Made by a program: the position numbers and the translations under genes
The notes under the pieces: generated by a model
The model's database searches: none
Seen by the model: only the letters and a program-made list of their open reading frames with translations
Told to the model about the DNA's origin: nothing
Shown here: piece by piece, positions 28,236 to 53,198 of the stretch
How positions within the stretch are numbered: position 1 is the stretch's first letter
Layout of the letters: every line of letters starts with the position of its first letter
Source: an uncultured delta proteobacterium
Lineage (GTDB): Bacteria > Desulfobacterota > Binatia > Binatales > Binataceae
Reading direction: 5' to 3'
Assembly: GCA_963774705.1 (NCBI GenBank)
Contig: CAVZFW010000015.1
Location: 138,046-202,045 of the forward strand
Length of the DNA stretch: 64,000 nt

Positions 28236-28261
28236 TGTTACTTTCGATTTTAAAGTTACAA

Positions 28262-34796: not shown

Positions 34797-34822
34797 CTTC
34801 GGATTATCCCTTACGAAGTTAC
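34797..34822 (-). promoter_or_regulatory. ECF-type promoter motif, site 6
   Basis: Minus strand reads GTAACTTCGTAAGGGATAATCCGAAG. 216 nt upstream of sigma 1. Confidence 0.55.
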
Positions 34823-35355
34823 AGGTCGAGCTGAGAAACCTTGGCGGACTCACGAGCATCTCATTGGTCGAGACCGTCGGTTTTCGAGGCCGCCAAACGA
34901 CGGCGGATAGCCATCTCGAGAGCCAATGAAACCCGCAAAGCAGTTCGGAATCGAATTAGTCGGAGAGTCTTTACCAAAGGTCGGCGCCGACCCGCTGATT
35001 AACCCCGTAGGAGAGGAATTATGGATATAAGGCGGTGCGGTTGTGGAGGGCGCAGTCAGCGCTTGATTTTTGACCGCACCCATGTTCACGCGGGACTCGT
35101 CAGAAAACTCGAGCGAGGCGAACGTGAAGTGCGGAGCTGGCGAATAGCTGCAAAGCTCCGAGTTCTCGTAAGAGCGAAAACCACAGCTGCAAGCGGCTGA
35201 ATTCCTGCAACGGCTAGTATTTGGTGATAACTTCAGCCGCCCAAGAATGTATGGAGAAAGGTGGTCATCTGGAAGGTTCAAAGTAGATACGGGAACCTCG
35301 AACCGGATCGGCCACGACAGAAATCCAATCAGGGCGCGCACTCAGCAGGTTAAGT

Positions 35356-36216
35356 ATGAATCGATCAGATTTCGCAGCGCTCGGCTTCGGCATTGGCCTG
35401 CGCCGTTCCCATTATGCACATATCCTGGAGAATCGTCCGCGGTTGGACTGGTTCGAGGTCATCTCGGAGAACTTCATGGTTGAAGGTGGCCGACCCCTCG
35501 AAGTCCTGGAGGGTGTGCGAGCTCAATATCCGATCGTAATGCACGGTGTGTCGCTTTCTATTGGCTCGACGGACCCGCTCAACGTTGTATATTTGAAACA
35601 ACTTGCGAAGATCGCGCGACGCTTCGAGCCGGCCTGGATCTCCGATCATCTATGCTGGACCAGCGTGGGCGGTCGCAATTTGCACGACCTTCTGCCTTTG
35701 CCTTACACCGAGGAGGCAGTTCGCCACGTTGCCGCGCGCCTCAGACGGGTACAAGACATCCTCGGGCGCACTCTGCTACTCGAAAACGTCTCGAGCTATA
35801 TTGCATTTACTTCATCGCAGCTCTCAGAGTGGGAATTCCTCAGCGCCGTGGCTCAGGAGGCCGACTGCGGCATCCTGCTCGACATCAACAACATATTCGT
35901 CAGCGCATTCAACCATCGCTTCGACCCGGTCGGTTACATCGATGCGGTACCCTTAGGACGGGTGATGCAGTTCCATCTTGCCGGCCATAGCGACCATGGC
36001 ACCTACCTGCTCGATACCCACGATCATCCGATTTGCCCAGAAGTCTGGACCCTCTACGAGCACGCGGTACGGCGGTTCGGTCGAGTTCCGACGCTTATCG
36101 AATGGGATGACAATATTCCGGAGTTCGAAGTCTTGGCCGCGGCTGCGGATGAGGCATGCCGGCGATGCGAGTCAGCGCTCGGCGGGGAAGGATCGGGCAC
36201 GGAAGAATGGACTTGA
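35356..36216 (+). CDS. bufB: MNIO family enzyme (DUF692, BufB/MbnB-like)
   Basis: 286-aa intact ORF. GFGIGLRRSHYAHIL...DWFEVISENFM, MHGVSLSIGSTDPL, WISDHLCW, LLENVSSY, ILLDINNIFVSAFNH, TLIEWDDNIP are canonical DUF692 blocks. Confidence 0.9.
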   Translation: MNRSDFAALGFGIGLRRSHYAHILENRPRLDWFEVISENFMVEGGRPLEVLEGVRAQYPIVMHGVSLSIGSTDPLNVVYLKQLAKIARRFEPAWISDHLCWTSVGGRNLHDLLPLPYTEEAVRHVAARLRRVQDILGRTLLLENVSSYIAFTSSQLSEWEFLSAVAQEADCGILLDINNIFVSAFNHRFDPVGYIDAVPLGRVMQFHLAGHSDHGTYLLDTHDHPICPEVWTLYEHAVRRFGRVPTLIEWDDNIPEFEVLAAAADEACRRCESALGGEGSGTEEWT

Positions 36217-37055
36217 CTCTTTCCGAACTCCAAACTTCGCTCTATCAACTGATCACGAATCCTGAGAGAGCAAAACGGATCGGCGACGACGGCGACCCCG
36301 TTTTGGGCCACGCAGAAGCATTGATCCGCGGCGACTCCCGCCTGAGCGCGAGCGAGCGGGTGACGATTTATGCCAACGCCTATTTCTATCGGCTGCTCGA
36401 CTGCCTCTATGAGGAATTTCCTGCGACGTCCGCTGTCGTTGGTGCGGACAACTTTGTCGCCCTCGTACGCGACTACTTGCGGGCGTGGCCTCCCACTGAG
36501 CCATCGATATTCTATATGGGCCGACATCTGAGTGCCTTTCTTCGCGACCATGCTTTCGCCAGGCGCTGGCCCTTCACTTACGAACTAGCGAGGCTGGAAA
36601 GGACGATTCTGGAGGTCTTCCATGCGGCCGAGGTCTTCACACTCAGCGACCAAGCGATGCGCGCTATTCCTTCGTATCAATGGCCTACGATTAGATTGAA
36701 GATACATCCAGCCGTCCAAATCCTGCACAATGAATGGCGCGTGACGGACGTATTGGGCGATGTTCAGACCGGTCGTGAATGCCGCGAGCCCGCGCATCAA
36801 AAGTCGCCAGTGATCGTGTGGAGACAAGACGCGGAGGTGTATTATCGCGCTCTGGAGGACGCAGAAGCTAAAGCGCTCGTCCTCTTGTCGGAAGGCGCAC
36901 GTTTCGCCGCAATTTGCGAGGTCGTTGAAGCCCTGACGTCGACGACTGATCAAGTAGCTCTCATTGGTCGACTATTAGCGCAATGGTTGGCGGATGGGAT
37001 CCTTGTGCGCGCTGACTTGGCGCTCACAACGTCCACGATTACTTCACGAATCTAG
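36207..37055 (+). CDS. bufC: DUF2063-family protein (BufC-like MNIO partner)
   Basis: ATG 36207 overlaps the DUF692 stop by 10 nt. LQTSLYQLITNPE...ALIRGDSRLSASERVTIYANAYFYRLLDCLYEEFPA is the DUF2063 N-terminal signature. Confidence 0.8.
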   Translation: MDLTLSELQTSLYQLITNPERAKRIGDDGDPVLGHAEALIRGDSRLSASERVTIYANAYFYRLLDCLYEEFPATSAVVGADNFVALVRDYLRAWPPTEPSIFYMGRHLSAFLRDHAFARRWPFTYELARLERTILEVFHAAEVFTLSDQAMRAIPSYQWPTIRLKIHPAVQILHNEWRVTDVLGDVQTGRECREPAHQKSPVIVWRQDAEVYYRALEDAEAKALVLLSEGARFAAICEVVEALTSTTDQVALIGRLLAQWLADGILVRADLALTTSTITSRI

Positions 37056-37159
37056 GACGTGTACGAAGCCATCCGGGGCCGCCGCACCGTCCGAAACGCT
37101 TATCGCGGTCGCGAGGTAGGGTTCGGCGTTGCAGCAGGACGGGTCATGTCGCGGACATT

Positions 37160-37675
37160 CTAATCCTGACCTTTGGGCGCTCCCGCTATCGGGGCGAAAA
37201 AGGGTGCGCAACTGTCGCGAAGAGTCTGATGGCAGTTTGCATCCGCCGCAATTTCATCTGTCAGCGGGAGCGAACTCAGGACGACGGCATGGGTGTTCGC
37301 GAAACATGCGACTACGCGCGTGGTGGCGTCGCGATCGGTGATTGCGATGATTGCATCGTGGCCGATCGCGACCGCTGACGGCGAATAAGTGTCGCCAAGC
37401 GTTGTACACATGCAGTGCTGATGCCATTCCTCAACATTCGTTTCATGGAGCGCCGCAAGCACGGCATCATGACAGGCGATGCGGGCCTGCTGGATTGCAT
37501 GACAGAAGTCGTCGTTGTCGCAGTGTAGCGCGGTGGCCGGCCATCGCGTCACGGTGCCACAAGCGGTAAGGAGAAGAGCGCTAATGAAAATCAGAAGCCC
37601 GGCCGTGGGTTTCTGAAATTTATGAGTCGGGAGCTGGTTCGCATTCACGGAGCCGCACGGGTTGCCGAGATTCAC
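37160..37675 (-). CDS. Cys/His-rich lipoprotein, hypothetical
   Basis: Lipobox LLLTAC. Mature part has HCDNDDFCH, IACH, HQHCMC, NCH, SCA. The start is GTG at 37675 or 37648. Abuts the peptidase stop. Confidence 0.5.
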   Translation of the reverse strand: MNLGNPCGSVNANQLPTHKFQKPTAGLLIFISALLLTACGTVTRWPATALHCDNDDFCHAIQQARIACHDAVLAALHETNVEEWHQHCMCTTLGDTYSPSAVAIGHDAIIAITDRDATTRVVACFANTHAVVLSSLPLTDEIAADANCHQTLRDSCAPFFAPIAGAPKGQD

Positions 37676-37676
37676 C

Positions 37677-38699
37677 TCAACGAATGTTGTTTAGCTGCCG
37701 TCTATCGGCGGCTATGGCGCGGCGGACCGATGCCCAAGGCGCACTACCAACAAAGGAGAGCGTTTTGCCGTCGACGTCGACCCCAAGCTTACTCCACAGT
37801 AGCGTCAAGTCCGGTGCGGCTGGAGCCGCCTTCATCTCATCATATAGTTGCAACAGCACCGGCACCCCGACGGCCTTACCACCAACCTCGAAAGCGTGGG
37901 TCAGAGGCCAGGCCGTCTCCATATTCCCACCGGCATCGACGATCGCTCGCAGCGCATCACGCAGGCCATAGCGATCTTTTGTCGCGCGGCGAATTCGGAC
38001 GTCAGCGAGCAGACAGAACATCGCACCGCCCCAGTATGTGCGGCCCCAGGTAGGCGTATGATCGAGTCCCTGGTCGCCGGGACGCGGCAGTCCGTACGGA
38101 AGTCCCTCCACTAAATCGCCCCAAACTTTCGTCGCGCTAATTTCGCCCGCCTCGTTTCGAGCGATCGGTTCGACGTAGGTTGCGATCCCCTCTTCTATCC
38201 AATGATGTTCAGTCGACACCGAGGGGAATGCGTAATGGACCATCTCGTGCGTCATCACCCAGTCGTTCTTGAGGTCGGCGTCGTCGGTTAGCTGACCCAT
38301 GTAAATCCGGGTAGAGACGGGGTGCGTTCCCCAACTTGTCCCACTTAGCACACCCTTACGATTCTCGACGGGAACGATCAAAATTTGCGCCTCGCGGACC
38401 GGAAAGCGGCCGTAATAGGTGATAACGGCTCTCGCCGCCGCAGTAACCCACGCGATGACATGTGTCACTGGAAGTTGAAGACTCCCCGGAGCGAATTCAA
38501 CCTTGACCGTACTATCATCGATTTTGATTGTACTCGGTATTAGCTTTGCGGAGCCGTCGATTGGGTGCACCGTTTGTTCGGTGGAAGTAACCATCTCCAA
38601 CAATCCGGCGCTCGCCGTCCGATTAGTCTCGAATCCATACGGGGCGAAGTTCGTCATCACGGAGGCGAAGAGCACCATGGCGAGCGCTAAGGTTTCCAT
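37677..38699 (-). CDS. secreted zinc metallopeptidase, peptidase-MA (M1/M61-like) fold
   Basis: Start at ATG 38699 (METLALAMVLFASV signal). HEMVH followed by WIEEGIATY (HExxH + E gluzincin arrangement). Confidence 0.65.
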   Translation of the reverse strand: METLALAMVLFASVMTNFAPYGFETNRTASAGLLEMVTSTEQTVHPIDGSAKLIPSTIKIDDSTVKVEFAPGSLQLPVTHVIAWVTAAARAVITYYGRFPVREAQILIVPVENRKGVLSGTSWGTHPVSTRIYMGQLTDDADLKNDWVMTHEMVHYAFPSVSTEHHWIEEGIATYVEPIARNEAGEISATKVWGDLVEGLPYGLPRPGDQGLDHTPTWGRTYWGGAMFCLLADVRIRRATKDRYGLRDALRAIVDAGGNMETAWPLTHAFEVGGKAVGVPVLLQLYDEMKAAPAAPDLTLLWSKLGVDVDGKTLSFVGSAPWASVRRAIAADRRQLNNIR

Positions 38700-39123
38700 T
38701 TCCACTAATGGGTTCGATCTTTCTGGAGCAACCGCCCCGTCAGCCGCGAACAAGCCTCGTGCAACCCAGTCGACTTTCTATTGCTCGTAAGATAGCGGGG
38801 ATGCCTCCCAATCTTTGCCCATGTTGCCATCACACGGCTCGGCTCGCCTCACTCGTTGCATTCGACTCTAGTAGCGGGAAGCACCGCGAGCTTTGACGAA
38901 CAACGCGCAAGAATCGCTTCGGAGAAGTTCTCCGACGGCATGCCTGAGTACAGCCTGGCAATCCATTGTTCTCGAACGGTTTATTCGAAAGGGTCATAAT
39001 TTCAGAAAAACGAGCAATAGAGTTGAGGAGTAATTCTCGCGAACAAACGGAGCAACGCTCCGACCTCGGCTACTATGACGAAGCTGTTCCAGAGCAATCG
39101 CGATCTTTCCTCTCGATCATTAT

Positions 39124-39330
39124 CTAGGCAACGACGTCGCATTTTTCCGCGGTCGATACGGGTGGACCGGGCAACGCAGTTCCCGTTCCCAGGACTTTCA
39201 ATACGCGCGAATCGTGCCAGACTTCGGGCGAGGAAAGCGCTCGGGTATTCTCCGAAGCAATTCCGCCCGGTTGAAGCTCAGTCGCAGTCCACTCGCTCCC
39301 GATGCTGAACGTTTCGTTTGCAGAATCCAT
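39124..39330 (-). CDS. 68-aa ORF created by duplication of the YHS/di-iron gene junction
   Basis: ATG 39330 is preceded by the identical 20-nt GAGTGAGTGAGGTCG leader found at 40194. MDSANETFSIGSEW parallels MDSASEPLHIDCEH. May be a remnant rather than a gene. Confidence 0.3.
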   Translation of the reverse strand: MDSANETFSIGSEWTATELQPGGIASENTRALSSPEVWHDSRVLKVLGTGTALPGPPVSTAEKCDVVA

Positions 39331-39384
39331 CGACCTCACTCACTCGTCGCCCTCTTTGAATGGGGCGTCGAGTTGCGACCCACC

Positions 39385-40194
39385 TTATGCCAAGCGCCTC
39401 TGCGAGTTGATTCTGTGAAACAGGTTGTCCGCGTCAACTCCCAGGTCTTCAAATGAGCGCCCGAGAGGAGCGAGAAGTGCTACCAGTTCACTGCGGACCC
39501 GGACCGCAGTGTTCGCCAGCAACGACATCTCGGCCCCAAGCTCGCAAGAGTGCTGGCGCGAAAACCTCGCATGCCGCGCCTCATCCGAGCGAACTCGGCC
39601 GAACATCTTTACCAGTGCAGTAGCGCGCGCGAGCGGCTTAACTACTGCCGGGAGGACGACGCAAACGGCTGAGTCAAGCGCCGCGACCCTGGCGAAATGA
39701 AGCGCGGGGTCTCGGCTGGCCACGCGTAAAAAGAACCGGCGCGTGCGCAATAGGGTGCCTCCAACATCGTTAGGCACAGAACAATAGCTGCGCAACTCTT
39801 GAATTAATCGCTCGTGTTCCAACTCGTCGGCAGCAATTCGATTCGCCAGAAATCGGCTATGGCCGGCCTGAACATTGGAGATCCGACGCCCTTCTCGCGA
39901 GAAGACCTGGAACGCCGATTCTTCGCCACAAAGCAGAGTTGGTAAGAGCCGACCGAGCGCAGTGACCTGATTGTTGGACAATACAGAAATGCTATCCCTG
40001 ATCCTGGCGATCCTGAGCCGCGGCGTTACTAGCGGACGACACGTCGGGACCAGAACGCGAGGCGAAAAACACACCGCATCTGAATCGGGGACCATTTCCT
40101 GATCGGCCACAATGCCGATAGCGTTCGTCTTAATGTCCACCTCCGGACGCTCGTGCTCGCAGTCAATGTGAAGAGGTTCACTTGCTGAATCCAT
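39385..40194 (-). CDS. hypothetical protein with ferritin-like di-iron-type motifs
   Basis: 269 aa from ATG 40194. LLCGEESAFQVF ... ADELEHERL and ... VRSDEARHARF give an E..(D/E)ExxH x2 pattern. Start overlaps the YHS gene by 17 nt. Confidence 0.45.
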   Translation of the reverse strand: MDSASEPLHIDCEHERPEVDIKTNAIGIVADQEMVPDSDAVCFSPRVLVPTCRPLVTPRLRIARIRDSISVLSNNQVTALGRLLPTLLCGEESAFQVFSREGRRISNVQAGHSRFLANRIAADELEHERLIQELRSYCSVPNDVGGTLLRTRRFFLRVASRDPALHFARVAALDSAVCVVLPAVVKPLARATALVKMFGRVRSDEARHARFSRQHSCELGAEMSLLANTAVRVRSELVALLAPLGRSFEDLGVDADNLFHRINSQRRLA

Positions 40195-40687
40195 CGACCT
40201 CACTCACTCCCTTCTTCGGATAAAACGGCCAGTTGCGATCGGCCGACGAAATGTTCCCGCTCTTGTTCAGCGACCAGAGGTGGTAGGAAAGGTAGTTATT
40301 GTTCAAATAGAGTTTGCCATCGACGATCGCCCATCGAGATGGATCTATGTCGGCAATGCGGTCTATCGCCATCGCGTAGGCACAGTAACCGCCGTACTGC
40401 GGAAGATATTTCTCCGGGTCGGACTCGAATCGTGCCAGGTTCTCGGCGGAACCGAATCGATACGTCACACCTCTCCAGCGGTAGGTATACTCGTTCACGC
40501 CAGCAGTTGGTTGGCCTATAGTGAAGTACGCCACCGGGTCATACCCTTTGAGGCCAGTACCATCTGCGGCGTTCACTGCAGCCACGGGCGTCTTTTCTGA
40601 AGCTGCTAGTGCGGAGCCCGCGCGATTCGCGAATGGAGCCACGACCAGTAGAAACCAAACCAACGCGAAGAATTGAAAGCGCTTCAT
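40178..40687 (-). CDS. secreted YHS-domain protein
   Basis: Signal MKRFQFFALVWFLLVVAPFANRAGSALA. GYDPVAYF...YRFGSAENLARFESDPEKYLPQYGGYCAY is the YHS-domain pattern. Confidence 0.8.
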   Translation of the reverse strand: MKRFQFFALVWFLLVVAPFANRAGSALAASEKTPVAAVNAADGTGLKGYDPVAYFTIGQPTAGVNEYTYRWRGVTYRFGSAENLARFESDPEKYLPQYGGYCAYAMAIDRIADIDPSRWAIVDGKLYLNNNYLSYHLWSLNKSGNISSADRNWPFYPKKGVSEVDGFSK

Positions 40688-40857
40688 AATGTCAATCATC
40701 CTTTGCATCTACACAAGAGTTATCTGTGGCGCAGATCGGACTTCATAAGGGCGTCCCGCTGAGGCCGACTCGGTGACAGTGACTGAGAGAGGAACGGTGG
40801 ATTTCACCACTCCGTGGTGTACGCGGTCCAACACCAGACACAGGCAACGTCGAAACC

Positions 40858-41055
40858 TTAAAGCTCCACCTGCACCTGCGCCGCTCCGTCCGTTTGCTCC
40901 TTAACCCACAAGACGACGCTGACCGCGTCCGCCGTTTCCTTCCATGGCAGCGGCACCCAATGGTCGCCGACTGCCACCGCCCACATATGTATGATCGAAT
41001 CGCGCCTGACGCGGATTACTTCGGTATGACTGAAATCGTAACTTAATCCATTCAT
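40858..41055 (-). CDS. 65-aa hypothetical protein
   Basis: ATG 41055 with GGAGGG RBS 6 nt upstream. MNGLSYDFSHTEVIRVRRDSIIHMWAVAVGDHWVPLPWKE. No family recognised. Confidence 0.4.
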   Translation of the reverse strand: MNGLSYDFSHTEVIRVRRDSIIHMWAVAVGDHWVPLPWKETADAVSVVLWVKEQTDGAAQVQVEL

Positions 41056-41131
41056 TGTTGCCCTCCAGTCGAACAAATAACTTTGCTCGAAGGGCCGCCC
41101 GACTCTTAAGTGCCGTCATTCCACTTTTCTT

Positions 41132-41458
41132 TCAAGGAGCCACAGCGGAGCTGATTCCCGCGCCTGCGAGACTCACGCCTTGTATGATGCATGACTCCGG
41201 ATCTCCTACCAGATCATGCTGGGAGTACAAATGCCCCGGCTTGCAGTTGTGTGATGCCTGAGGCCGAGCGTTAGCTGCAGATGGCTTGAGCCAGCTATCT
41301 TCGATAAACCCGGAGGGCGCGAGGTTATTGGACGAGACCATTTCGACCGCGCCGCTTACGGCTTGGAGTACAGTTGTTCCCGACCAAGCCGGAATTGCTG
41401 TGTTTGTCATGATTAGGCCGAAAACCGCAGCCGCTGTGCTTTTCTTGAAGCTCTTCAT
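41132..41458 (-). CDS. 108-aa secreted protein, paralog of 62999-63319
   Basis: ATG 41458 with GAAGGAG RBS. Signal MKSFKKSTAAAVFGLIMTNTAIPAWS. The C-terminal NCKPGHLYSQHDLVGDPESCII is shared with the 63319 protein. Confidence 0.6.
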   Translation of the reverse strand: MKSFKKSTAAAVFGLIMTNTAIPAWSGTTVLQAVSGAVEMVSSNNLAPSGFIEDSWLKPSAANARPQASHNCKPGHLYSQHDLVGDPESCIIQGVSLAGAGISSAVAP

Positions 41459-41531
41459 AATTACTCCTTCGGAAATTCCTTTATTTAAAAACTGATCTAT
41501 CCGTGTTGTACGCAGCTCCACCTATGGTTAC

Positions 41532-41557
41532 TTTCGGCTCCCGGTCCGGAAAGTTAC
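41532..41557 (-). promoter_or_regulatory. ECF-type promoter motif, site 4
   Basis: Minus strand reads GTAACTTTCCGGACCGGGAGCCGAAA. 74 nt upstream of ATG 41458. Confidence 0.6.
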
Positions 41558-41726
41558 AAAGACGAACTATTAGGATCGACGTCAAGACGAAAACACGGGG
41601 CCAGTTCTCGGTGCCGTTGATCGTTCGGATATCCGCCGATGTGGTCGAGCCAACCCCGATCGACGGGCCGGGACTAGTACGCTCGAACGTAATTGTTGCC
41701 GACATCCTTATTATAGTTTGCAGCCT

Positions 41727-41752
41727 GTAACTTTCGTGGGCCGCGCGCGAAT
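41727..41752 (+). promoter_or_regulatory. ECF-type promoter motif, site 1
   Basis: GTAACTTTCGTGGGCCGCGCGCGAAT. 95 nt upstream of ATG 41847. Confidence 0.6.
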
Positions 41753-41846
41753 TCCTCAAAGAAGGGAACGACAGACTGCATCGCACTGCCGCTTTCAACC
41801 GGCGGCTGGCACTCACAAACGGTAATTACCCAAAGGAGACGGGAAG

Positions 41847-42134
41847 ATGAAAGTAGCAAAGACGGGAGCCTTTCTGGCGACGGCGGTTGGGCTGATGTTC
41901 ATGGCCAACGTCGCATTGGCTCAAGAAAACGTTGCGGCGGCCGGCAGCGGCGCACCAACCACAGAGAGCGCGAAGGTGAAATGCCTGGGAGCCAATAGTT
42001 GTAAGGGACAGAGCTCGTGCAAAAGCGCGCAAAATGATTGCAAGGGACAAAACGCCTGCAAAGGTAAGGGCTTCATCGAAACGTCGAGCTCTCAGGAATG
42101 CACGCAGAAAGGCGGTATGCCGGCAACTAGCTGA
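41847..42134 (+). CDS. bufA: BufA2-like (six-Cys bufferin-type) signal-peptide precursor
   Basis: 95 aa, AAAGGAG RBS. Signal MKVAKTGAFLATAVGLMFMANVALA. Core KCLGANSCKGQSSCKSAQNDCKGQNACKGKGFIETSSSQECTQKGG has six Cys in CKG-type repeats. Confidence 0.7.
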   Translation: MKVAKTGAFLATAVGLMFMANVALAQENVAAAGSGAPTTESAKVKCLGANSCKGQSSCKSAQNDCKGQNACKGKGFIETSSSQECTQKGGMPATS

Positions 42135-42158
42135 CAGATTGTCGAATCTGTCCATGGC

Positions 42159-42196
42159 GGCAGGACGTTTTCCCTTGCGTCCTGCCGTTTTCGTTT
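42159..42196 (+). terminator. rho-independent terminator after the bufA-like gene
   Basis: GGCAGGACG-N10-CGTCCTGCC followed by GTTTTCGTTT. Confidence 0.7.
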
Positions 42197-42272
42197 CAGC
42201 CGACTGTCGGCTAGTTTACGCCCACGATCCAAAGAATAAGGAGAGCGATTATTTTCCGAGACCTGGTCTTCG

Positions 42273-43160: not shown

Positions 43161-43314
43161 CGAACGATTCCTTTTCTTCCGCCAGAGCTCGGGAGAACCT
43201 TCCAGTTTCTCCGAAGGTTGTATGCCGCAACTTTGGTCGCTGGAGGCCTGAGGTCCAAGTCAGAAAAAATCTGAGCCTTAGCGGGGCCAGCTCACCGCGC
43301 GCTTCATGACGGCG

Positions 43315-44697: not shown

Positions 44698-44770
44698 ATC
44701 TATTCACACCTTCCTTTCCGGCGGCTAAAAAGCCAGGATGGGCCTCGGACATCCAGTGAGATCGCAAGGA

Positions 44771-45592: not shown

Positions 45593-45668
45593 TTTCGTTG
45601 CGCTTTTTCCGCCATGCGCCAGCGCTCTTACTCAGCACTACTCACTGCTCTCGAGCGAACTCGTGCAG

Positions 45669-46358
45669 TCAGGTGTCGTACCCTGGAGCATTCCGCGCGT
45701 CCTCGAATCGGGCCAGCTGCCGTTCACGCCAAAGAGCGATCGGATCGTCGCTTGACAGAAGCTTGAAGGGGCTTGTACTCCGAGCCCACATGAAACCGCC
45801 TAAGACTAAGTAGTCAGCGTAAATCGGCGCCTCTCCACCCACAAAGGGTTGCGTCTTCAGCGTTGTGCGAAAGGGTTCGAGGGTCTGTCGAAAGCCAATC
45901 ACCCGATGATCGCGATCCGCGCACGCCGCTTCGAGCGTCATGCCCAGGCGCTGCTCGCGGCTAGACCGAAAATACGCGCGATCTTTTTCGTGAAGATGGG
46001 CGAATACGTCGATCAGAATGAGGGGCACCAAGCCCGGCAGAAGTACATCGTCGGTCCAGCTTTCAACGAAACGGGTTAACGCCAGCCCGGCCTGTCCGCC
46101 GAAGAGCGAAGCTCCATCAGCGTTGTTCTCGAGATGGTTGACGATCGTCCAAGAGCCTGTGAGTACTTTGCCGCGATCGAGCAGTACCGGTACTCGGCCC
46201 TGCTGTGAGAAAGCGATTACCTCCTTGTCGGTAAAGCGCCAGGGTATGGTTTCCACTGGTAGCCCTTTGTGCGCGAGTGCGAGGCGTACACGCCAACAAT
46301 AAGGGCTGAACCGTCGATCGGCCTCCGCTCCAGCAAGGTCGTACAGTATCAGCGCCAC
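45669..46358 (-). CDS. glutathione S-transferase family protein
   Basis: 229 aa. MALILYDLAGAEADRRFSPYCWRVRLALAHKGLPVE...GRVPVLLD is a thioredoxin-like GST N-domain. Confidence 0.75.
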   Translation of the reverse strand: MALILYDLAGAEADRRFSPYCWRVRLALAHKGLPVETIPWRFTDKEVIAFSQQGRVPVLLDRGKVLTGSWTIVNHLENNADGASLFGGQAGLALTRFVESWTDDVLLPGLVPLILIDVFAHLHEKDRAYFRSSREQRLGMTLEAACADRDHRVIGFRQTLEPFRTTLKTQPFVGGEAPIYADYLVLGGFMWARSTSPFKLLSSDDPIALWRERQLARFEDARNAPGYDT

Positions 46359-46373
46359 CGCGATTGGTCCTCC

Positions 46374-47072
46374 TCAGCGAGCCGTCATATTGGCCGTGGT
46401 CTGGCCAAAGAGGATCTTTTTCGCATCTTCATTCACGAGTTGGCCGCGCTTTTCTTTGCCCAGGTCGACTCCTCTGACGACTGCCGGACGGCTGCGAATC
46501 GTTTCGAACCAGACCTTAAGCCGTGGGAAGTCCTCAAGCTTCTGACCTTGAAGCTTGTACGGCATAACCCAGGGGAAAGCAGCCATGTCCGCAATCGAAT
46601 ATTCGCCCGCGAGAAACGGGCGATCCTGTAAACGACTCTCGATGACTCGGTACAGCCGGTTGGTTTCCTTGATATAGCGCGCGATAGCGTACGGCAATTT
46701 CTCAGGCGCGTAGATGTTGAAATGATGATTTTGCCCAGCCATCGGACCTAGACCGCCCATCTGCCAGTAGAGCCATTGGAGCACCTCGTACTTGCCACGG
46801 GGCTCCCTGGGCATGAATTTTCCAGTTTTTTCCGCGAGGTACTCGAGAATCGCGCCACTTTCGAAAATCGAGATGAGCGCGCCGCCACCCAGCGGCTCAT
46901 GGTCAACAATCGCAGGCATTCGGTTGTTCGGACTGATTTTGAGGAAGTCGGGCTTGAACTGCTCGCCCGCGCCGATATTCACATACTTAATGGCGTAAGG
47001 AACGTTGCATTCCTCTAGCATGATACTGACTTTCCAGCCGTTCGGGGTTGGCCAATAGTAAAGATCGATCAC
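46374..47072 (-). CDS. glutathione S-transferase (YfcG/Nu-like)
   Basis: 232 aa. MIDLYYWPTPNGWKVSIMLEE...GEQFKPDFLKISPNNRMPAIVD...IFESGAILEYLAEKTG. Confidence 0.85.
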   Translation of the reverse strand: MIDLYYWPTPNGWKVSIMLEECNVPYAIKYVNIGAGEQFKPDFLKISPNNRMPAIVDHEPLGGGALISIFESGAILEYLAEKTGKFMPREPRGKYEVLQWLYWQMGGLGPMAGQNHHFNIYAPEKLPYAIARYIKETNRLYRVIESRLQDRPFLAGEYSIADMAAFPWVMPYKLQGQKLEDFPRLKVWFETIRSRPAVVRGVDLGKEKRGQLVNEDAKKILFGQTTANMTAR

Positions 47073-47328
47073 GGTGTGTCTCCATTTTGGCTCTCTGTGT
47101 TCTGCCTCTCGAACCCTAACTCATTTTGGAACGTTCGGTCAAGGATAGTGAGATAACAGGCCGCGAGGATCGATGATCAGGCTTGATATTTGATTGTTTC
47201 TGATTCTTGAAAGCCTTGACGGTGAAGCCACAATCGTTCCAACATGGTCTGTAGAAAAATGTCGAGCATAGACGCGTGCATGCCGCTAGCGAGACAAAGC
47301 CTTCCCGCCGCCCGATGTGAATGTGCGG

Positions 47329-48027
47329 TCAACCGGGGGGTTCAGTACGTGGAATGCGGCGAGGAAATCGGAGCAAGACAGCGCCAGCCCAGGTTGAAAG
47401 CGCAATAAGCGTGAACGCGGGCAACAGGTGCCAGGTGAGCAGATGCAGTGGCTCGTCGATCGGACAGACGATCCGCATCAGCGCAAATGAGAAAAACATC
47501 GCGCCGGCGCCAATTAACGACCCTGACAGCCTGCCGCGTGTCGGGAACCCGCGGCTCACGAGCCACCACAGCAGCAGCCATGGCGTCGCGGCCAGCACCA
47601 GCGTCTCGCTTGCGCAGCGCAAACCAAGGTGGAGAAATTCCTGTAACTGATAGTCGATCCGGATTGGTGCGCTGACAGTTATAAGCACGATACCGGCCAG
47701 CACCAAGGTCACCCCGAGGATGGTTTCGGCCGCGCGCAGTGGCCGCCCCGGGATGGCCGAGCGGAGGGCGAGTATCGCCGAGATCATCGCGGCGGCAACA
47801 AAGAGCACGATCTCGAGCGCATAAGCTGGCCGGTGTTCGAGCTTAGGCAGGAAATCATTGTCGGTATGCGTGATGACCCACGCCAGGACGCCGACCTCCA
47901 GGAGCATCCAGAGCACCAGCCGTACCCGCACCGGCCGCAGCCGGCGCGCCGGCTTGATCTCGTGCGCCAGCCGGCTCACCAATTCACGATGATGCTCTTC
48001 GTGGGTCCTTTGCGATAGTTCGGGCAT
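47329..48027 (-). CDS. nrsF: NrsF-type anti-sigma factor (DUF1109), intact
   Basis: 232 aa, six hydrophobic helices, immediately follows the ECF sigma with no gap. LVSRLAHEIKPARRLRP...LVLWMLLEVGVLAWV pattern of DUF1109. Confidence 0.75.
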   Translation of the reverse strand: MPELSQRTHEEHHRELVSRLAHEIKPARRLRPVRVRLVLWMLLEVGVLAWVITHTDNDFLPKLEHRPAYALEIVLFVAAAMISAILALRSAIPGRPLRAAETILGVTLVLAGIVLITVSAPIRIDYQLQEFLHLGLRCASETLVLAATPWLLLWWLVSRGFPTRGRLSGSLIGAGAMFFSFALMRIVCPIDEPLHLLTWHLLPAFTLIALSTWAGAVLLRFPRRIPRTEPPG

Positions 48028-48579
48028 CTACTCGCCGATTAGCCTTTTCAAAGCCTTGTACGCACGATGCGCTCGCACCTTCAGGGCGCCGACCGAGACC
48101 CCGGCCCGGGCCGCCGCTGCCTCGACCGACAATCCGTCAAGCTTCAGAAGCGAAAAGGCCTGACGCTGATCGGACGGAAGTTTGGCGAGAATTTCGTCGA
48201 GCTCGGGTGGCGCGGTATTGGAGCTATCCGCCGGCCGTTCAGGCAGCTCCGCGACGAGCTCTTCCCAGTGAGCGCGCGACCAGCGGCGGCGCGTGTAGTC
48301 GGCGGCAATGTTGCGCGCGATCGCAAAGAGCCAGGGCTCAAAGGGACGGCCCGGCTCGTAGGTGTGACGCGCTTCGAAGATTGCCATGAACACTTCCTGA
48401 TAGACGTCCTCGAGTTCATGCGGGTCGGCCACGCGGCGTCGCAAAAAGTACGTCAACGACGGCCCAATATCGTCCAGCAGCGCACTGCATGCGCCGGAAT
48501 CGCCCTGCTGCAACTGCTCCATCAGTCGAGCGCGGCGGCGAGTGCGCTCAAGACGCTGGGCTTCATCCGACTCTTTCAT
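48028..48579 (-). CDS. ECF-type sigma factor (sigma 2, SigF-like, paired with NrsF)
   Basis: Region 2 ELEDVYQEVFMAIFEARHTYEPGRPFEPWLFAIARNIAADY. Region 4 LPSDQRQAFSLLKLDGLSVEAAAARAGVSVGALKVRAHRAYKAL. The true start may be Met20 (48522), see findings. Confidence 0.9.
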   Translation of the reverse strand: MKESDEAQRLERTRRRARLMEQLQQGDSGACSALLDDIGPSLTYFLRRRVADPHELEDVYQEVFMAIFEARHTYEPGRPFEPWLFAIARNIAADYTRRRWSRAHWEELVAELPERPADSSNTAPPELDEILAKLPSDQRQAFSLLKLDGLSVEAAAARAGVSVGALKVRAHRAYKALKRLIGE

Positions 48580-48603
48580 TCTCCGCGCTCAGCCAAAAGT
48601 TAC
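48578..48603 (-). promoter_or_regulatory. ECF-type promoter motif, site 2
   Basis: Minus strand reads GTAACTTTTGGCTGAGCGCGGAGAAT. Its last nucleotides overlap the annotated ATG of sigma 2. Confidence 0.5.
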
Positions 48604-48730
48604 TCGGGAATGTGCCATGTCCATCGCGCGAGCCATGGACGCAGCGAGCATAGCCATTTTGAGGACGTGGTGACAGCGCGGCTCGCGAATGTCGCTAAGG
48701 GACCTTCCGCGGGATGATCGCACCAAACCC

Positions 48731-48756
48731 GTAACTTTTGAAGCGCCAGCCGGAAT
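48731..48756 (+). promoter_or_regulatory. ECF-type promoter motif, site 3
   Basis: GTAACTTTTGAAGCGCCAGCCGGAAT. 55 nt upstream of ATG 48812. Confidence 0.6.
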
Positions 48757-48811
48757 TGGTCAGACAGCGGATCGCTCGCTGAAGGTGGTCTTGCTGGAGA
48801 AAGGATGGGTC

Positions 48812-49393
48812 ATGAAGCGCACTGGGTTTTCATTTCCTCGCAAGAGTGATTTCGCAACCAATGGTGCCGGCGAGGATGACCGTCGGGGTAATGTCGACAC
48901 ACGAAACAAGCGACGGATGACTGCCCTGTCGTGCACCTTGGTAATAGCCTTCGCCATGCAGATGATGCCGGTCTGGATGGATCGCGCAGATGCTGGGTCA
49001 GACTTGACGTTGGCGCCAAATCTTTCGTTCGATGATGACTCGAGTCCGAACTTCCCGATCCAGGGAAAGCAACTCTCCGAAGGATCAAAAGCGTCCGGCG
49101 AAGCGACGGTGATTTTCTTCGGTACCGCCAATTGCTGGAACACCGCACGCGAGGCCGAACGTCTGATCAGGCTATACCCACAGTTCCGCAATCGGATTCA
49201 TTTCGTGATTGTGGACCTCCACAACGTTGCGCCTGAGCAGGAGGCCTTGGTGTCTCACTACTACCATGGATACATCCCCACCATCACCGCGATCGATAGC
49301 CGGGGTCAAGTGATTTACGATCGGGCCGGGGAAACCGCCGCGACTCGTGGCGACACGAGCAATCTGCAGACTTTACTCGAGTCGATTCACTAG
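48812..49393 (+). CDS. thioredoxin-fold (TlpA-like) exported protein, single-Cys CWNT motif
   Basis: Start ATG 48812 or the internal Met before the hydrophobic LSCTLVIAFAMQMMPVW. ATVIFFGTANCWNTAREAERL...YIPTITAIDSRGQVIY fits a thioredoxin fold. Confidence 0.5.
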   Translation: MKRTGFSFPRKSDFATNGAGEDDRRGNVDTRNKRRMTALSCTLVIAFAMQMMPVWMDRADAGSDLTLAPNLSFDDDSSPNFPIQGKQLSEGSKASGEATVIFFGTANCWNTAREAERLIRLYPQFRNRIHFVIVDLHNVAPEQEALVSHYYHGYIPTITAIDSRGQVIYDRAGETAATRGDTSNLQTLLESIH

Positions 49394-49413
49394 CCTTTGG
49401 AGCCGGAATAAAA

Positions 49414-49659
49414 ATGAAGAATCGCAGCGTAGCCATCGGGGCACGAGTCCCATCCACAATTTCAGGTGCTTGCTACTCGAGCGATTCGACCACAAATAGT
49501 TTGCCCGGTTTGCACTGGATGGGCTCACTGCCATCCGTGACTGAACAATTACGCGACGCCGAGACCCACGCGCAACCAGAAACCGGCAAGGGCGGTGTGA
49601 CGCTGGAGATGGTGCGGCAATTGCTGGACGCAACTGATCAAGAAGATGGCAAACGTTGA
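49414..49659 (+). CDS. 81-aa hypothetical ORF downstream of the thioredoxin-like gene
   Basis: GGAG RBS 9 nt upstream of the ATG. No recognisable family. Could be non-coding. Confidence 0.3.
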   Translation: MKNRSVAIGARVPSTISGACYSSDSTTNSLPGLHWMGSLPSVTEQLRDAETHAQPETGKGGVTLEMVRQLLDATDQEDGKR

Positions 49660-49939
49660 CGCGAGAATCGACCGAACGTCTGCTGGAATTCGAACCGGCG
49701 GTACCGTTATCCACGCCTGGTGATCGCTTGACGCTTTTGCCTGACTTACTGACGGTCCAGGAAGTCGCTCGACAGTTCGAATTCAACCCGCCAAATAAAG
49801 CAACATTTGAGCATTCGGCGCTCTCCGGTTGCGCTCACTCGGCGAATGCGAACGCTCGGAGGGGCGATGTCTCGTTTCCCGTCCGCCGGCCGAGCCGGCC
49901 CGAGGAAGTAGCCAAGCAAGGTAGCGGTTTGCCGCTGCG

Positions 49940-50450
49940 ATTCACCACTCTCGGATTGGGCGATTCCGCCCAGCGCTCCATCAGCTTCGCCCACGCCTCG
50001 ACGCTCGCCAATACCTTGTCCCGGGTCTCCGGGGGAACCCAGCTGAACGGAACCGACGCGTGCTTCGGTAAACCTGGCCAGCGCGCGATGATCCTGATCG
50101 AGCTTGCCAGCCGGCTCATCGTAAGCGTCGATCGCAAGGGTCTTCGGTTCGCGGCCGGACTGGGCCAGCAGTTCACGAAATTCGCCGAGTTTGGCGAAGA
50201 AGGCCTCGCCGCGCACCGTCGGCATCCAGCCGTCGCAATACGCGCTCGCGGCTCTCATCGCGGCCGGCGCCTAGCCGCCCATTGTAATTGGTGGAAACGC
50301 CCCACACATGATGTCGCCCTCGAATTGGCTGCCTTCGAAATCGATCATCGTCGCCGCACCGACAGATCGTTCCCGATCAGCTCACACGCTCTCGGCGGTG
50401 TATCAAAAAGGTCTCGATAGGACCGTGCTGGATTCATTTTCCCCAAACCG
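49940..50450 (-). pseudogene. luciferase-like monooxygenase (LLM) C-terminal remnant, frameshifted
   Basis: AYCDGWMPTVRGEAFFAKLGEFRELLAQSGREPKTLAI, then TRDKVLASVEAWAKLMERW in another frame. An upstream piece MIDFEGSQFEGDIM is in a third frame. Confidence 0.5.
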
Positions 50451-50994
50451 GCTTGGTCAGATTCGTCGACCTATCGGCAACTCGAAGAAATGACGGCGGA
50501 GCGCGCCGTTGAGGTCATCATCCCCGCCTGAACCGTTCGCTGCTCAAAGTAGCCGTTACTCGAGACGGCATTCCGGCAACGCAAGCGAGTTGTTGGAATC
50601 AGCTGGCGTTTGGATGAAACGTATATCAGCGTCAAAACTATCTGTATCGAGCCATCGACAAGGCTGGTGATACGGTGGACTTCATGCTGACCGCGAAGCG
50701 CGACCGCAGAGCCCCTTCGCGTTTTTTGCGCAAGTCCAAGAGCAGAGCCAACGCTGCGGCGATCGAAGACTACAACCACGACCTGAACACCAGCATCGAA
50801 CTGCGACAGGTCAAATATCTCAACAACATTGACGAGCGGGACCACCGTGCGATCAAACGACTGACGCGGCCGATGCTGGGCTTCAAATCGTTTTGGTCGG
50901 CTGCCACAACGCTGGCAGGGATCGAGATCGTACAGATGACTCGCAAAAGCTCTAGCTGATCTGCCAACGCACACTCACGCCTGCGCAACAGTTC
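50440..50994 (+). mobile_element. IS6-family element remnant (transposase with stop, frameshift and deletion)
   Basis: YRQLEEMTAERAVEV, SWRLDETYISVK, YLYRAIDKAGDTVDFMLTAKRDRRA, IELRQVKYLNNIDERDHRAIKRLTRPMLGFKSFWSAATTLAGIEIVQMTRK. Right end TGCGCAACAGTTC resembles the IS26-type IR GCAACAGT. Confidence 0.7.
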
Positions 50995-51044
50995 TACTCA
51001 TTGGCCTGAATGAGCCGGGGTGGCAGAAAATCGCTTCGACTAGT

Positions 51045-51250
51045 TCACGCGAAACATTGCGACAGAACCAGCGCATCCGCCCGCGGACAGCTCGAACATC
51101 CCTGCGACGTGAACAGCTGAAGAACAACTGGGCCGTCCTCCACCGCTTGGTTCGACTTGAAAATGCGGCGGGCCGACAGATGAAAGCCCATCCGAGCGCG
51201 AACAGAGCCGATACTGCAAAGATCCAGGGAATCGGACCGAATCTCACGCG
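51045..51250 (-). pseudogene. DUF1223 N-terminal fragment
   Basis: PVVLQLFTSQGCSSCPRADALV is the hallmark DUF1223 motif. The signal-like WIFAVSALFALGWAFICRPAA is in another frame. Truncated beside the IS6 end. Confidence 0.5.
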
Positions 51251-51377
51251 GAAAACTCGCACAAGCAATGTCTCGAATTTCACTTGAAGGCGGCGGCTGC
51301 TGCTCCGTCGCAAATACTCTGTCTCTGATTCGAGCCTTCACTAACCGTCTGTGTCTCAGGCTCCAACGCCAATTTAC

Positions 51378-52028
51378 TCAGTGAATGACCGGATATGATT
51401 CCGCGGCCACCATTTTCAGTTGGATCGATCGGGAGCGAAGGTAGGCGATGGCGCGAACCGCGAGCAATATCGCGAGAACCAACCCATAAGCCATCGGCTC
51501 GCGCACGTCGCGCTTGACCCTCCAGGTGAAGTGAATGACGGCGAGCGTCGGCGCCACGTAAGCCAGACGATGAAGCTGCTTCCATCGTACGTAACCGAGA
51601 CGTTTGACCGCCCGGTTTGTCGATGTCGCGGCGAGCGGCAGCAGCAACACAAAGGTGGCAAACCCGACGAAAATGAACCTCCGCTTCACGACATCGTCCG
51701 CGATCGCCCGCCAATCAAGACCTTGGTCCAACGCGGTATAGGTGGTGACGTGCAGCAGGGCATAGAAGGCAGCGAGGAGACCGAGCATCCGTCTCAACCG
51801 CATCGGCCAGGTCCAACCAAGAAGTGCCTTCAGCGGCGTGCACGCAAGCGCCGCGACCAGGAAGACGAGCGCGATCAACCCCAGTTGATTCAAGGCCTGG
51901 GCGATTGGATCTGCTCCAAGATCACCGTGCCAAGCCCGCAGCACAATGGCAGCGATCGGAACGAGCGATCCGGTGAGGACCGCCGGCTTGAGCCATGGCA
52001 GTGGCGGAAATTTCCCCGACGCTCCCAT
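51378..52028 (-). CDS. msrQ: protein-methionine-sulfoxide reductase heme-binding subunit MsrQ (YedZ)
   Basis: Start ATG 52028, 3 nt after the msrP stop. Ferric-reductase-like TM protein with LGLIALVFLVAALACTPL, RRMLGLLAFYALLH-type His helices, HRLAYVAPTLAVIHF. Confidence 0.85.
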   Translation of the reverse strand: MGASGKFPPLPWLKPAVLTGSLVPIAAIVLRAWHGDLGADPIAQALNQLGLIALVFLVAALACTPLKALLGWTWPMRLRRMLGLLAAFYALLHVTTYTALDQGLDWRAIADDVVKRRFIFVGFATFVLLLPLAATSTNRAVKRLGYVRWKQLHRLAYVAPTLAVIHFTWRVKRDVREPMAYGLVLAILLAVRAIAYLRSRSIQLKMVAAESYPVIH

Positions 52029-52030
52029 TT

Positions 52031-53026
52031 TTAGAAGAACCTCCGAAGATCCATTCCGGCATACAAGCCCGCGACCTGCTCCGCGTAGCCATTGAACGGC
52101 AAAGTTGGGCGGCGGTGATACTCGCCGATCCGCCTTTCGCTCGCCTGGCTCCATCGCGGATGATCTACGGCCGGATTCACGGTCGCGTAAAAGCCGTACT
52201 CCGCGGGCGCCGCGAGGTTCCAGGTGGTGGGAGGCGGCTGCTCTGCGAGACGAATTTTTACAATCGATTTGATTCCTTTGAATCCGTATTTCCAGGGGAC
52301 CACGAGTCGCAGAGGCGCCCCATTCTGGTTCGGCAGTCGCCGGCCGTAGAGGCCGACCGCGAGGATGGTTAACGGATGCGTCGCTTCATCGATGCGCAGC
52401 CCCTCGACATAGGGCCAATCGAGCAGACGGCTGCGCTGTTCCGGCATCTGTTCGGGATCGAGCAGGGAGGTGAACTCTACATACTTCGCGCGGCCGTTGG
52501 GCTCGACCCGGCGCAGCAGCCCTCCGAGCGGGAAGCCTACCCACGGAATCACCATCGACCAGCCTTCCACACAGCGCATACGGTAAGTGCGCTCCTCAGG
52601 TGGAAACCACCTGAGGAGTTGGTCGATATCGACGACGCGTGGCCTTGACACCTCGCCCTCGATCGTCACCGTCCACGGATACGGCCTGAGCGTGCGCGAG
52701 TTCTCGGCCGGATCGTTCTTGTCAGTGCCGAACTCGTAGAAGTTGTTGTAAGTGGTTACGCTGTCATATGTCGTCTTCAATTCTCCCGCGGCATAATCTG
52801 CTCGCCGAGCGATCTCAAACCCGGGGGAAGCCAGCAGTGCGTGCGCCTTCGCAGTTTCGTTACGGACATTGGCGCGAAGGCCTCGCATCAGCCAGAGCAG
52901 CGTGCTTCCGACACCAGCGCTCGTTGCAGCGAAGAGCGCGGAGTTCCGTAGGAATTCGCGACGCCTAAGGTATACCCGCTCGGGAGTAACCTCACTCGCG
53001 GGCTGGGTTTTGCCAATGCTGTCCAT
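52031..53026 (-). CDS. msrP: protein-methionine-sulfoxide reductase catalytic subunit MsrP (YedY), Tat-exported molybdoenzyme
   Basis: 331 aa. Tat-like [74 protein letters not shown] are YedY blocks. Confidence 0.9.
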
Positions 53027-53172
53027 GAAACGCGCCGCTCTTTTTCAATCGCAAGCGATATGGCTCAGGCAGATTGGGAGTGCGTCCGCGTAGCCGTCAT
53101 CTCCGGCATCAACCCCATTGCCAGGCACGTATAGTCCGAGCGTTCGACGAGGTTCCTTCTCCATGCCTAATG

Positions 53173-53198
53173 TTTCGGATGAGGGCCAGATAAGTTAC
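53173..53198 (-). promoter_or_regulatory. ECF-type promoter motif, site 5
   Basis: Minus strand reads GTAACTTATCTGGCCCTCATCCGAAA. 146 nt upstream of the msrP ATG. Confidence 0.55.

Follow-up and report, generated by a model that had tools for sequence, protein, structure and literature searches.

Six copies of an ECF16-type promoter motif point to a SigF/NrsF regulon in an uncultured member of the Binatia

The closest described relatives of the system reported here are the extracytoplasmic function (ECF) sigma factors of the ECF16 type and the promoters that they read. Caulobacter SigF recognizes GTAACC-N16-CGAA, and its regulon includes yedY, two DUF2282-DUF692-DUF2063(-DoxX) operons and sigF-nrsF itself (Kohler et al., 2012; PMC3511200). 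EcfF of Bradyrhizobium japonicum reads GTAAC(g,a)-N14-15-(c,t)CG(t,a), and transcription begins 6 bp past the -10 box (PMC3420878). For S. meliloti rpoE7 the motif is TGTAACA-N15-CGAAT, the target SMb20530 having N16 (PMC6180224), and the Brucella BcrS promoters consist of a -35 box TGTAAC and a -10 box GCGAAT/GCGAAA (PMC8315932). In this work we analyzed a 64-kb stretch of DNA (64,000 nucleotides; positions 138,046 to 202,045 of contig CAVZFW010000015.1, assembly GCA_963774705.1), called the window hereafter, from an uncultured delta proteobacterium placed in Desulfobacterota, Binatia, Binatales, Binataceae. To our knowledge, no transcription factor of the Binatia has been studied so far. The window carries six copies of the motif GTAACTT-N15-GAA, and the most likely reading, judged from the sequences and by analogy with the systems above, is that they serve as promoters for RNA polymerase with an ECF16-type sigma factor encoded at 48028-48579 (sig1). 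The whole is a known kind of system, an ECF16 SigF/NrsF regulon, in a lineage not studied before, with some parts locally rewired.

A preliminary description of this DNA had proposed a dispersed regulon joined by six sites, and all six were recovered as matches to GTAACTT-N15-GAA at 34798-34822(-), 41533-41557(-), 41727-41751(+), 48579-48603(-), 48731-48755(+), and 53174-53198(-). The expectation from 100 dinucleotide shuffles of the window was 0.04 matches; none of the shuffles (0/100) reached six, and the Poisson estimate for six matches is ~6e-12. The looser pattern GTAAC-N17-GAA returned the same six sites and nothing else, against 0.97 expected, and 6 out of 8 GTAACTT heptamers in the window have GAA at the fixed distance. 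When both strands were scored with a weight matrix made from the two boxes, the six sites reached 22.2-26.1 bits; the runner-up, site 2 read on its opposite strand, had 14.2 bits. In the alignment the six sites take the form (c/t)(t/c)GTAACTT(t)-N14-(C/G/A)GAA(T/A/G), with GTAAC-N16-nGAA in 6/6, a pyrimidine before GTAAC in 5/6 and CGAA in 4/6, while their flanks and spacers show no mutual similarity. Written as GTAACT-N15-nGAA, the motif has one base fewer than the Caulobacter consensus and lies within the published ECF16 range. The resemblance to Caulobacter GTAACC-N16-CGAA noted earlier holds for the overall pattern, apart from a spacer reduced by 1 nt and a variable base before GAA; the SigF motif and regulon (yedY, DUF692/DUF2063/DoxX operons) named in that description agree with Kohler et al. 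(2012).

Six similar sites could also be copies of a dispersed repeat, mobile-element ends or a chance cluster, and another inverted repeat with GTAACTTT is found at 28232-28261. However, with so few matches expected, with dissimilar flanks and spacers, and with the sites standing at orthologous positions across relatives of 56-95% protein identity, such an origin is effectively refuted. The repeat at 28232-28261 was also considered as a related operator on account of its GTAACTTT half-sites and was rejected, since its geometry is different and it adjoins IS630-like transposase fragments. This imperfect inverted repeat, TTGTTACTTTCGATTTTAAAGTTACAA, abuts two overlapping open reading frames (ORFs; 27578-28235, minus strand) with weak HTH_23/HTH_32 matches.

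Gene models were based on Pfam and NCBIfam matches, homology and the gene calls of the collection, and Pfam and NCBIfam upheld the genes named in the preliminary description (two sigmas, DoxX, DUF692/DUF2063, msrPQ and a bufA-like gene). As had been stated there, every site points at its adjacent gene: 6/6 face a gene start, at a distance of 55-216 nt or directly adjoining it. Site 1 (GTAACTTTCGTGGGCCGCGCGCGAAT, 41727-41752, plus strand) precedes an orphan bufA2 gene by 95 nt and site 2 (GTAACTTTCCGGACCGGGAGCCGAAA, 41532-41557, minus strand) lies 74 nt before p108. Site 3 (GTAACTTTTGGCTGAGCGCGGAGAAT, 48578-48603, minus strand) is located at the sig1-nrsF operon, where it would be autoregulatory, and site 4 (GTAACTTTTGAAGCGCCAGCCGGAAT, 48731-48756, plus strand) is found 55 nt before a thioredoxin-fold gene. 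Site 5 (GTAACTTATCTGGCCCTCATCCGAAA, 53173-53198, minus strand) stands 146 nt before msrP, and site 6 (GTAACTTCGTAAGGGATAATCCGAAG, 34797-34822, minus strand) 216 nt before a second ECF sigma gene (sigma2) and doxX. These five distances and the site sequences had been given correctly within 1 nt. The two divergent promoter pairs proposed earlier are also present, sites 1 and 2 being 170 bp and sites 3 and 4 128 bp apart. The statement that all six sites are intergenic is true for all except site 3, where GAA and the first ATG of the sigma ORF have one base in common (GAGAATG; ATG 48579-48577).

Assignment of the motif to sig1 is based on its NrsF partner, its likeness to a Burkholderia sigma factor, and the occurrence of the motif at sig1-nrsF in loci without sigma2. 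The sig1 product (minus strand; 183 aa, or 164 aa from Met20) matches Pfam Sigma70_r2 (60.6 bits) and Sigma70_r4_2 (51.4 bits), and all NCBIfam sigma models remain below their cutoffs for it. Its identity to an NrsF-linked Burkholderia sigma is 38.5% (104 bits), compared with 24.5% (39 bits) for sigma2, and it is 31-35% identical to the NrsF-linked sigmas of the Betaproteobacteria L010-L012; all of the sigmas compared are uncharacterised. The closest sig1 relatives in species-representative genomes (48-69% identity) come from metagenome-assembled genomes (MAGs) of Candidatus Binataceae, Binatus, and Binatia, as do the relatives of MsrP; the DUF692 protein of the window was found on metagenome contigs only. 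The adjoining nrsF gene (47329-48027, minus strand), which abuts the sigma stop codon, encodes a DUF1109 anti-sigma protein matching PF06532 NrsF at 63.7 bits (gathering score 26.8) over positions 1-204 of 204 in the profile. A hydropathy scan gave six hydrophobic segments, and its only cysteines are C138 and C188, 50 residues apart. Compared by count and spacing, they equal those of Caulobacter C131/C181 and of OsrA and AbcS C129/C179.

For comparison we used metagenome and genome loci retrieved by homology to regulon genes (L-numbers). The motif, in GAA or CGTA variants, adjoins sig1-nrsF in L001, L003, L004, L005, L007, L008, L009, L033, and L049, and L004, L005, L007, and L008 among them are without a sigma2 homologue; in the Betaproteobacteria L010-L012 it is located after nrsF. 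These loci bear on the question of whether the motif is read by sigma2 (33925-34581) instead of, or besides, sig1, in which case site 6 would be the autoregulatory promoter of sigma2. ECF sigma factors are commonly autoregulated, and site 6 is strictly conserved upstream of sigma2 in L018-L030. However, sigma2 is only ~25% identical to sig1 and to the NrsF-linked Burkholderia sigma, and among the NCBIfam models it fits SigM/SigW-like ones best. The motif also accompanies sig1-nrsF where no sigma2 homologue is present, and in Proteobacteria (L010-L012, L041), and the long-form relatives of sigma2 have a sigma-54-type promoter, not the GTAAC motif. We consider recognition by sigma2 unlikely.

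All six sites are kept upstream of orthologues in related Binataceae metagenome loci. Site 1 recurs upstream of bufA2 in L046 (3738-), L047 (1710-), and L009 (9132-), and site 2 ~75 nt upstream of the p108 orthologues of L046, L047, and L048 (81%, 57%, and 56% aa identity), each with a spacer of its own. Site 4 is kept upstream of the orthologue in L033 (10267-) and L049 (9578-). Site 5 is kept only in L043, as GTAACTTCCGGCCGTATCGATGGAAT, 94 nt upstream of msrP, and in L018-L030 site 6 occurs with three different spacers, bordered in every case by unchanged CCTGTAACTT and TC.GAAGTAC. The spacers also vary among 28 distinct motif instances, gathered with a search pattern that itself demanded GTAAC and GAA. 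The motif could also be the operator of a conventional DNA-binding repressor or activator, and sites 2 and 6 do show partial dyad symmetry (GTAACTTTC...GAAAGTAAC and GTAACTTCG...CGAAGTAC), with an extra conserved block, GGCGGACTCACGAGCATCTCA, beside site 6. Yet the other four sites have no symmetry, and two short invariant boxes at a fixed gap of 16-17 nt, free spacers and a single orientation to the gene are the behaviour of a promoter; moreover, the motif matches promoters with mapped transcript starts in four organisms. An operator is thus very improbable, and we retain the reading of the six sites as sig1 promoters.

In the relatives, additional copies of the motif precede msrA, DUF1329 and p65-YHS, and such extra copies at other genes indicate that the regulon is plastic. 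In two Binataceae MAGs, L001 (11256, plus strand) and L009 (11274, plus strand), the motif stands directly after nrsF and before a secreted MsrA-like gene (GCFWG, recognized by eye); the MsrA-like gene is not present after nrsF in the window, where two GST (glutathione S-transferase) genes are found instead. In L005 (1654-/1665+) and L007 (9807-), which are relatives at a greater distance, GTAAC-N15/16-CGTA lies upstream of a radical-SAM-like gene (CNQACxHC motif), and in L005 the divergent motif is also upstream of a SAM-methyltransferase-like gene. From their sequences, without a family search, these genes are read as ArsS/ArsM-like.

Several observations weigh against sig1 recognition of all six sites. 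The base preceding GAA is not the canonical C in 2/6 sites. The comparison loci were chosen by regulon-gene homology and so form a biased sample of genomes. The motif is found upstream of sigma2 too, and the sequence alone is compatible with recognition by sigma2. The msrP orthologues in L044 and L045 have no motif upstream, and bufB-bufC, core SigF targets elsewhere, have no canonical site in the window, only a deviant TGAAAC with a spacer 2 nt shorter. At site 3, finally, the -10 box and ATG1 of the sigma ORF overlap, and the 19 codons from ATG1 to Met20 (48523-48579) are conserved in a coding-like manner: third-position differences were 7/12, 13/21, and 10/19 (window, L033, L001, L009), a bias which suggests that they are translated from another promoter.

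The overlap of site 3 with ATG is also seen in L033 (10399+), L049 (9711+), and L003 (CGTATG). With the -10 box on ATG1 and a transcript start ~6 nt past the box, as for ecfF, ATG1 would be missing from the transcript and translation would begin at Met20 (48522); the sigma factor made from site 3 therefore probably starts there. Proteobacterial sig1 homologues align from residue 24-26, and a Dadabacteria orthologue starts at the position of the conserved Met20. It may be that sig1 has a short isoform (Met20, from site 3) beside a long one made from another promoter. Two-isoform control is known for sigma-R/SigH (Casas-Pastor et al.).

A mechanism can be proposed when the observations made here (a conserved motif of constant orientation, the partner proteins and the genes present) are combined with what is known of SigF/NrsF of Caulobacter, EcfF/OsrA of B. 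japonicum, and BcrS/AbcS of Brucella. Sequestration by NrsF, release by thiol stress and a start ~6-7 nt past GAA are carried over from these systems. As long as the cell is unstressed, sig1 would be kept at the membrane by NrsF, a membrane protein of six helices. Its cysteines C138/C188 would be hit by oxidants, reactive chlorine species or thiol-reactive metals, and sig1 would be freed. It would then bind a -35 box (c)TGTAACTT and a -10 box nGAA(t), with a gap of 16 nt when counted from GTAAC up to the base that precedes GAA, and transcription would start ~6-7 nt downstream of the -10 box. Six units would be induced in this way: sig1-nrsF, orphan bufA2, the secreted/YHS operon, the periplasmic thioredoxin-fold protein, msrPQ, and sigma2-doxX. 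With sigma2 as a target the response would become a two-tier sigma cascade, and the modifying enzymes of bufB/bufC would be under a degenerate variant of the same promoter. The context of the targets (signal peptides, Tat signal) suggests that they act in the periplasm against oxidant or copper damage, and that the orphan BufA2 is modified in trans by BufB/BufC.

The history of site 6 can be followed in the relatives of sigma2. The sigma2-doxX unit (33310-34581, minus strand) consists of sigma2, which belongs to another ECF group, and doxX (33310-33843). Most sigma2 homologues (56-72% identity) are 287-327 aa long, compared with 218 aa in the window. Their N-terminal extension matches Pfam STAS in 14/16 and STAS_2 in 9/16 long members (best E 2.8e-5 and 4.3e-7). 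The AlphaFold model of the extension has the order beta-beta-alpha-beta-alpha-beta-alpha (pLDDT 78-90), and in Foldseek it resembles the RsbV/SpoIIAA structures 1vc1, 1tid, and 1h4z (target-normalised TM-score 0.56-0.64), besides ECF sigma matches. The long sigma2 relatives are thus predicted to be ~290-aa fusions of a SpoIIAA-like STAS domain to an ECF sigma (STAS::ECF). Such fusions were not described in the literature searched, the coverage of which was incomplete.

In L031, L033-L035, L038, L045, L049, and L050 the sigma2 gene directly follows a gene for a PAS/GAF sigma-54 enhancer-binding protein. GG(C/T)AC-N5-TTGC (-24/-12 type, GG-N10-GC) precedes the gene in L031, L033, L035, L036, L037, L045, L049, and L050, with GGCCT-N5-TTGCT in L050. 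The window and L017-L030 are without the enhancer-binding gene. Their sigma2 leader of 216-250 nt (34582-34796 in the window) is decayed STAS coding sequence, with remnants HEVEPLRRR and FAARIGR in two frames, and site 6 aligns with the former sigma-54 promoter region of the long-form relatives. An origin of site 6 from the Arg-Val-Thr codons of STAS (AGG GTA ACC) was rejected, since the alignment places the site at the sigma-54 promoter region instead. We tentatively propose, with somewhat less than even confidence, that the SigF/NrsF regulon captured a second ECF sigma to form the two-tier cascade, sigma-54/STAS control having been replaced in place by a SigF-type promoter. An Rfam scan of 30000-56000 gave nothing at E <= 1, and the long leaders are therefore unexplained by any known RNA element.

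The surroundings of sigma2-doxX show other traces of change. In the gap that separates site 6 from the variant bufBC promoter (described below), the block GGCGGACTCACGAGCATCTCA (34843-34863) hardly varies among L018-L030. In the alignment with the long-form relatives it falls immediately upstream of their sigma-54 promoter region, and it does not contain GG-N10-GC. On the other side, 32718-33095 (plus strand) is what remains of the 3' part of a second nrsF gene. An intact paralogous sigma (37% identical to sig1) and a 213-aa NrsF, convergent on doxX, are present in L017 and L020. Synteny with the window breaks at 32763 for L017/L020 and at 33098 for L018/L019, which indicates a rearrangement hot spot.

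Among the proposed targets, the bufferin genes are the most altered in arrangement. The orphan bufA2 gene (41847-42134, plus strand) encodes a 95-aa precursor of bufferin-2, a copper-binding peptide (NCBIfam NF050166 BufA2, 83.9 bits against a cutoff of 60), with an N-terminal hydrophobic Sec signal ending ALA-QE and six Cys. It is followed by an intrinsic-terminator-like hairpin (42156-42189, plus strand) with a 13-bp stem and a T run, so bufA2 is predicted to be monocistronic. This is the only intact bufA2 found in the window, and it lies 5.6 kb from bufB/bufC instead of next to the enzymes. The latter genes, bufB (DUF692/MNIO, 35356-36216) and bufC (DUF2063, 36165-37055), cover 35356-37055 on the plus strand (Pfam E 5.2e-112 and 2e-17), and both are intact. 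Before them is a bufA2 pseudogene (35021-35290, plus strand; 75% nt identity to the intact bufA2 of L021/L023) with a 1-nt insertion causing a frameshift, an in-frame stop and lost Cys codons, its tblastn match being split over two frames. Intact bufA2 precedes DUF692 in L021-L030. In L018 and L019, loci 95% identical to the window, the DUF692 match itself is split over two frames. A literature search for bufferin-linked ECF sigmas gave nothing specific.

The preliminary description had offered a weaker seventh site at 35177-35202. It falls within the bufA2 pseudogene and is coding-derived: "AAAACCAC...GAAT" encodes the conserved GNHSCKGLNS segment of relatives, and the promoter reading was rejected. 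A variant promoter candidate, TGAAACCCGCAAAGCAGTTCGGAAT, is located at 34927-34951 (plus strand), 70 nt before the bufA2 pseudogene-bufB-bufC. In the window it has the form TGAAACC-N12-TCGGAAT; compared with the SigF motif, the invariant T is changed and the spacer is shorter. As TGAAAC-N13/14-CGGAAT it is also kept in L018-L030, L033, and L035. L049 has a canonical SigF-type GTAACCTTTGATACAAGGTCGAGAAT at the same position, which points to the variant being a diverged SigF-type promoter. It may be read by sig1, by a lost paralogue (sig3) or by sigma2. A separate sigma2-type motif (TGAAAC-N12-15-CGGAAT) was also considered: the window holds one extra match, at 25702(-), and none in an autoregulatory position. 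With the canonical site of L049, the reading as a diverged SigF-type promoter is preferred. The variant-like site at 25677-25702(-) lies ~400 nt upstream of a TetR-like gene.

Site 2 precedes a four-gene operon, p108-p65-YHS-p269 (39385-41458, minus strand). The first gene, p108 (41132-41458), encodes a secreted, lineage-restricted protein with 17 homologue clusters among 5.8 billion sequences searched. It is followed by p65 (40858-41055), a member of the YHS-domain (seleno)protein family (40178-40687; NF041384, 144 bits against 70) and p269 (39385-40194). The p269 product has two ExxH motifs and faint Rubrerythrin/COQ7 (diiron-type) matches and may be a diiron protein. A terminator-like hairpin at 39048-39062, weaker than that of bufA2, closes the unit. 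The minus strand of 37160-40194 also holds p340 with HEMVH, a possible metallopeptidase motif, and p171 with a lipobox-like LLLTAC.

The gene behind site 4 (48812-49393, plus strand; start at 48812 or 48917) encodes a secreted thioredoxin-fold protein with a weak Pfam Thioredoxin_8 match and CWNT in place of CxxC. In L002 and L033 its orthologue is followed by a second bufA2 paralogue, which suggests a functional tie to bufferins; the window has neither such a gene nor a remnant of it. The next ~2 kb up to msrQ (49400-51377) has no convincing gene: its ORFs are Arg-rich and without a Pfam match, and it may be decayed sequence. Behind site 5, msrP (52031-53026, Tat signal RRREFL) and msrQ (51378-52028) form a unit at 51378-53026 on the minus strand, with the msrQ ATG 2 nt past the msrP stop; they encode a periplasmic methionine sulfoxide reductase. 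MsrP matches Oxidored_molyb (PF00174, 111.8 bits) and MsrQ matches Ferric_reduct (PF01794, 65.3 bits), and MsrP homologues at 72-79% identity are named MsrP/YedY. On one further contig msrPQ directly follows nrsF-bufA-MbnB-DUF2063. No gene for a Met-rich MrpX/BcrX peptide was noticed near msrPQ in the window, and no dedicated search for one was made.

What makes the locus of interest is chiefly its lineage, the targets joined to the regulon, and the proposed swap of sigma2 control from sigma-54/STAS to SigF. The six sites provide a testable regulon for an uncultured soil lineage and would carry the ECF16 promoter rule (GTAAC, ~16 nt, CGAA/CGTA) well beyond the Proteobacteria. They also give new candidates for the SigF response: a lineage-restricted secreted protein, a YHS protein and its diiron-like partner, and a thioredoxin-fold protein with CxxT. 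Co-regulation with msrPQ and bufferin makes p108, the YHS/diiron-like proteins, and the thioredoxin-fold protein candidates for periplasmic oxidant or copper defence. The bufferin system appears in a split form, either working or decaying, in which the orphan precursor survives and the enzyme-adjacent one is dead. If the proposed history of site 6 is true, one alternative-sigma circuit was replaced by another in place, sigma2 passing from sigma-54 to SigF control, and its relatives would represent a large family of STAS::ECF sigmas under sigma-54 control.

A close counterpart in gene order, known from annotation only, is the Burkholderia pyrrocinia plasmid locus NZ_CP150851.1, where sigma-NrsF is divergent from DUF2282-DUF692-DUF2063-DoxX and GTAACC-N16-CGAAT stands upstream of the operon; this is the source of the sigma with 38.5% identity to sig1. 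Unlike the window, it is a compact canonical cluster without a second sigma. The motif range of EcfF-OsrA of B. japonicum (PMC3420878) covers both the N15 of the window and the CGTA variant of distant Binatia loci, and its mapped autoregulatory start overlaps the annotated ATG, as proposed for site 3, the real start being distal (170 vs 186 aa). The inducer there is H2O2, and the 19-codon extension conserved in a coding-like manner in the window sets the two apart. SigF-NrsF of Azospira suillum and BcrS-AbcS of Brucella melitensis (PMC4436054, PMC8315932) have msrPQ (yedYZ) as a direct target, promoters divergent from or beside the sigma operon and boxes of the form -35 TGTAAC, -10 GCGAAT/A, whereas the regulon in the window would include bufferin genes too. 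The bufferin clusters buf1/buf2 (Leprevost et al., 2024; PMC11626156) share a six-Cys BufA2 with a signal peptide, BufB, BufC, DoxX (BufD), and SigF control. In the window that cluster is split, with a dead precursor beside bufBC, an intact bufA2 elsewhere and doxX next to the second ECF sigma. The prototype of ECF16, SigF-NrsF of Caulobacter crescentus, resembles the window in its ECF sigma followed by a six-TM (transmembrane) DUF1109 anti-sigma with two Cys 50 residues apart, in the GTAAC...CGAA boxes, and in its targets yedY/msrP, bufferin precursors, doxX and its own operon. The window differs in its lineage (Binatia, not Alphaproteobacteria), its 1-nt shorter spacer and -10 nGAA instead of CGAA, the orphan bufA2 5.6 kb from bufBC, and the pairing of doxX with a second sigma, and it would add the p108/YHS operon, the thioredoxin-fold protein and sigma2 to the targets of a SigF-type sigma factor.

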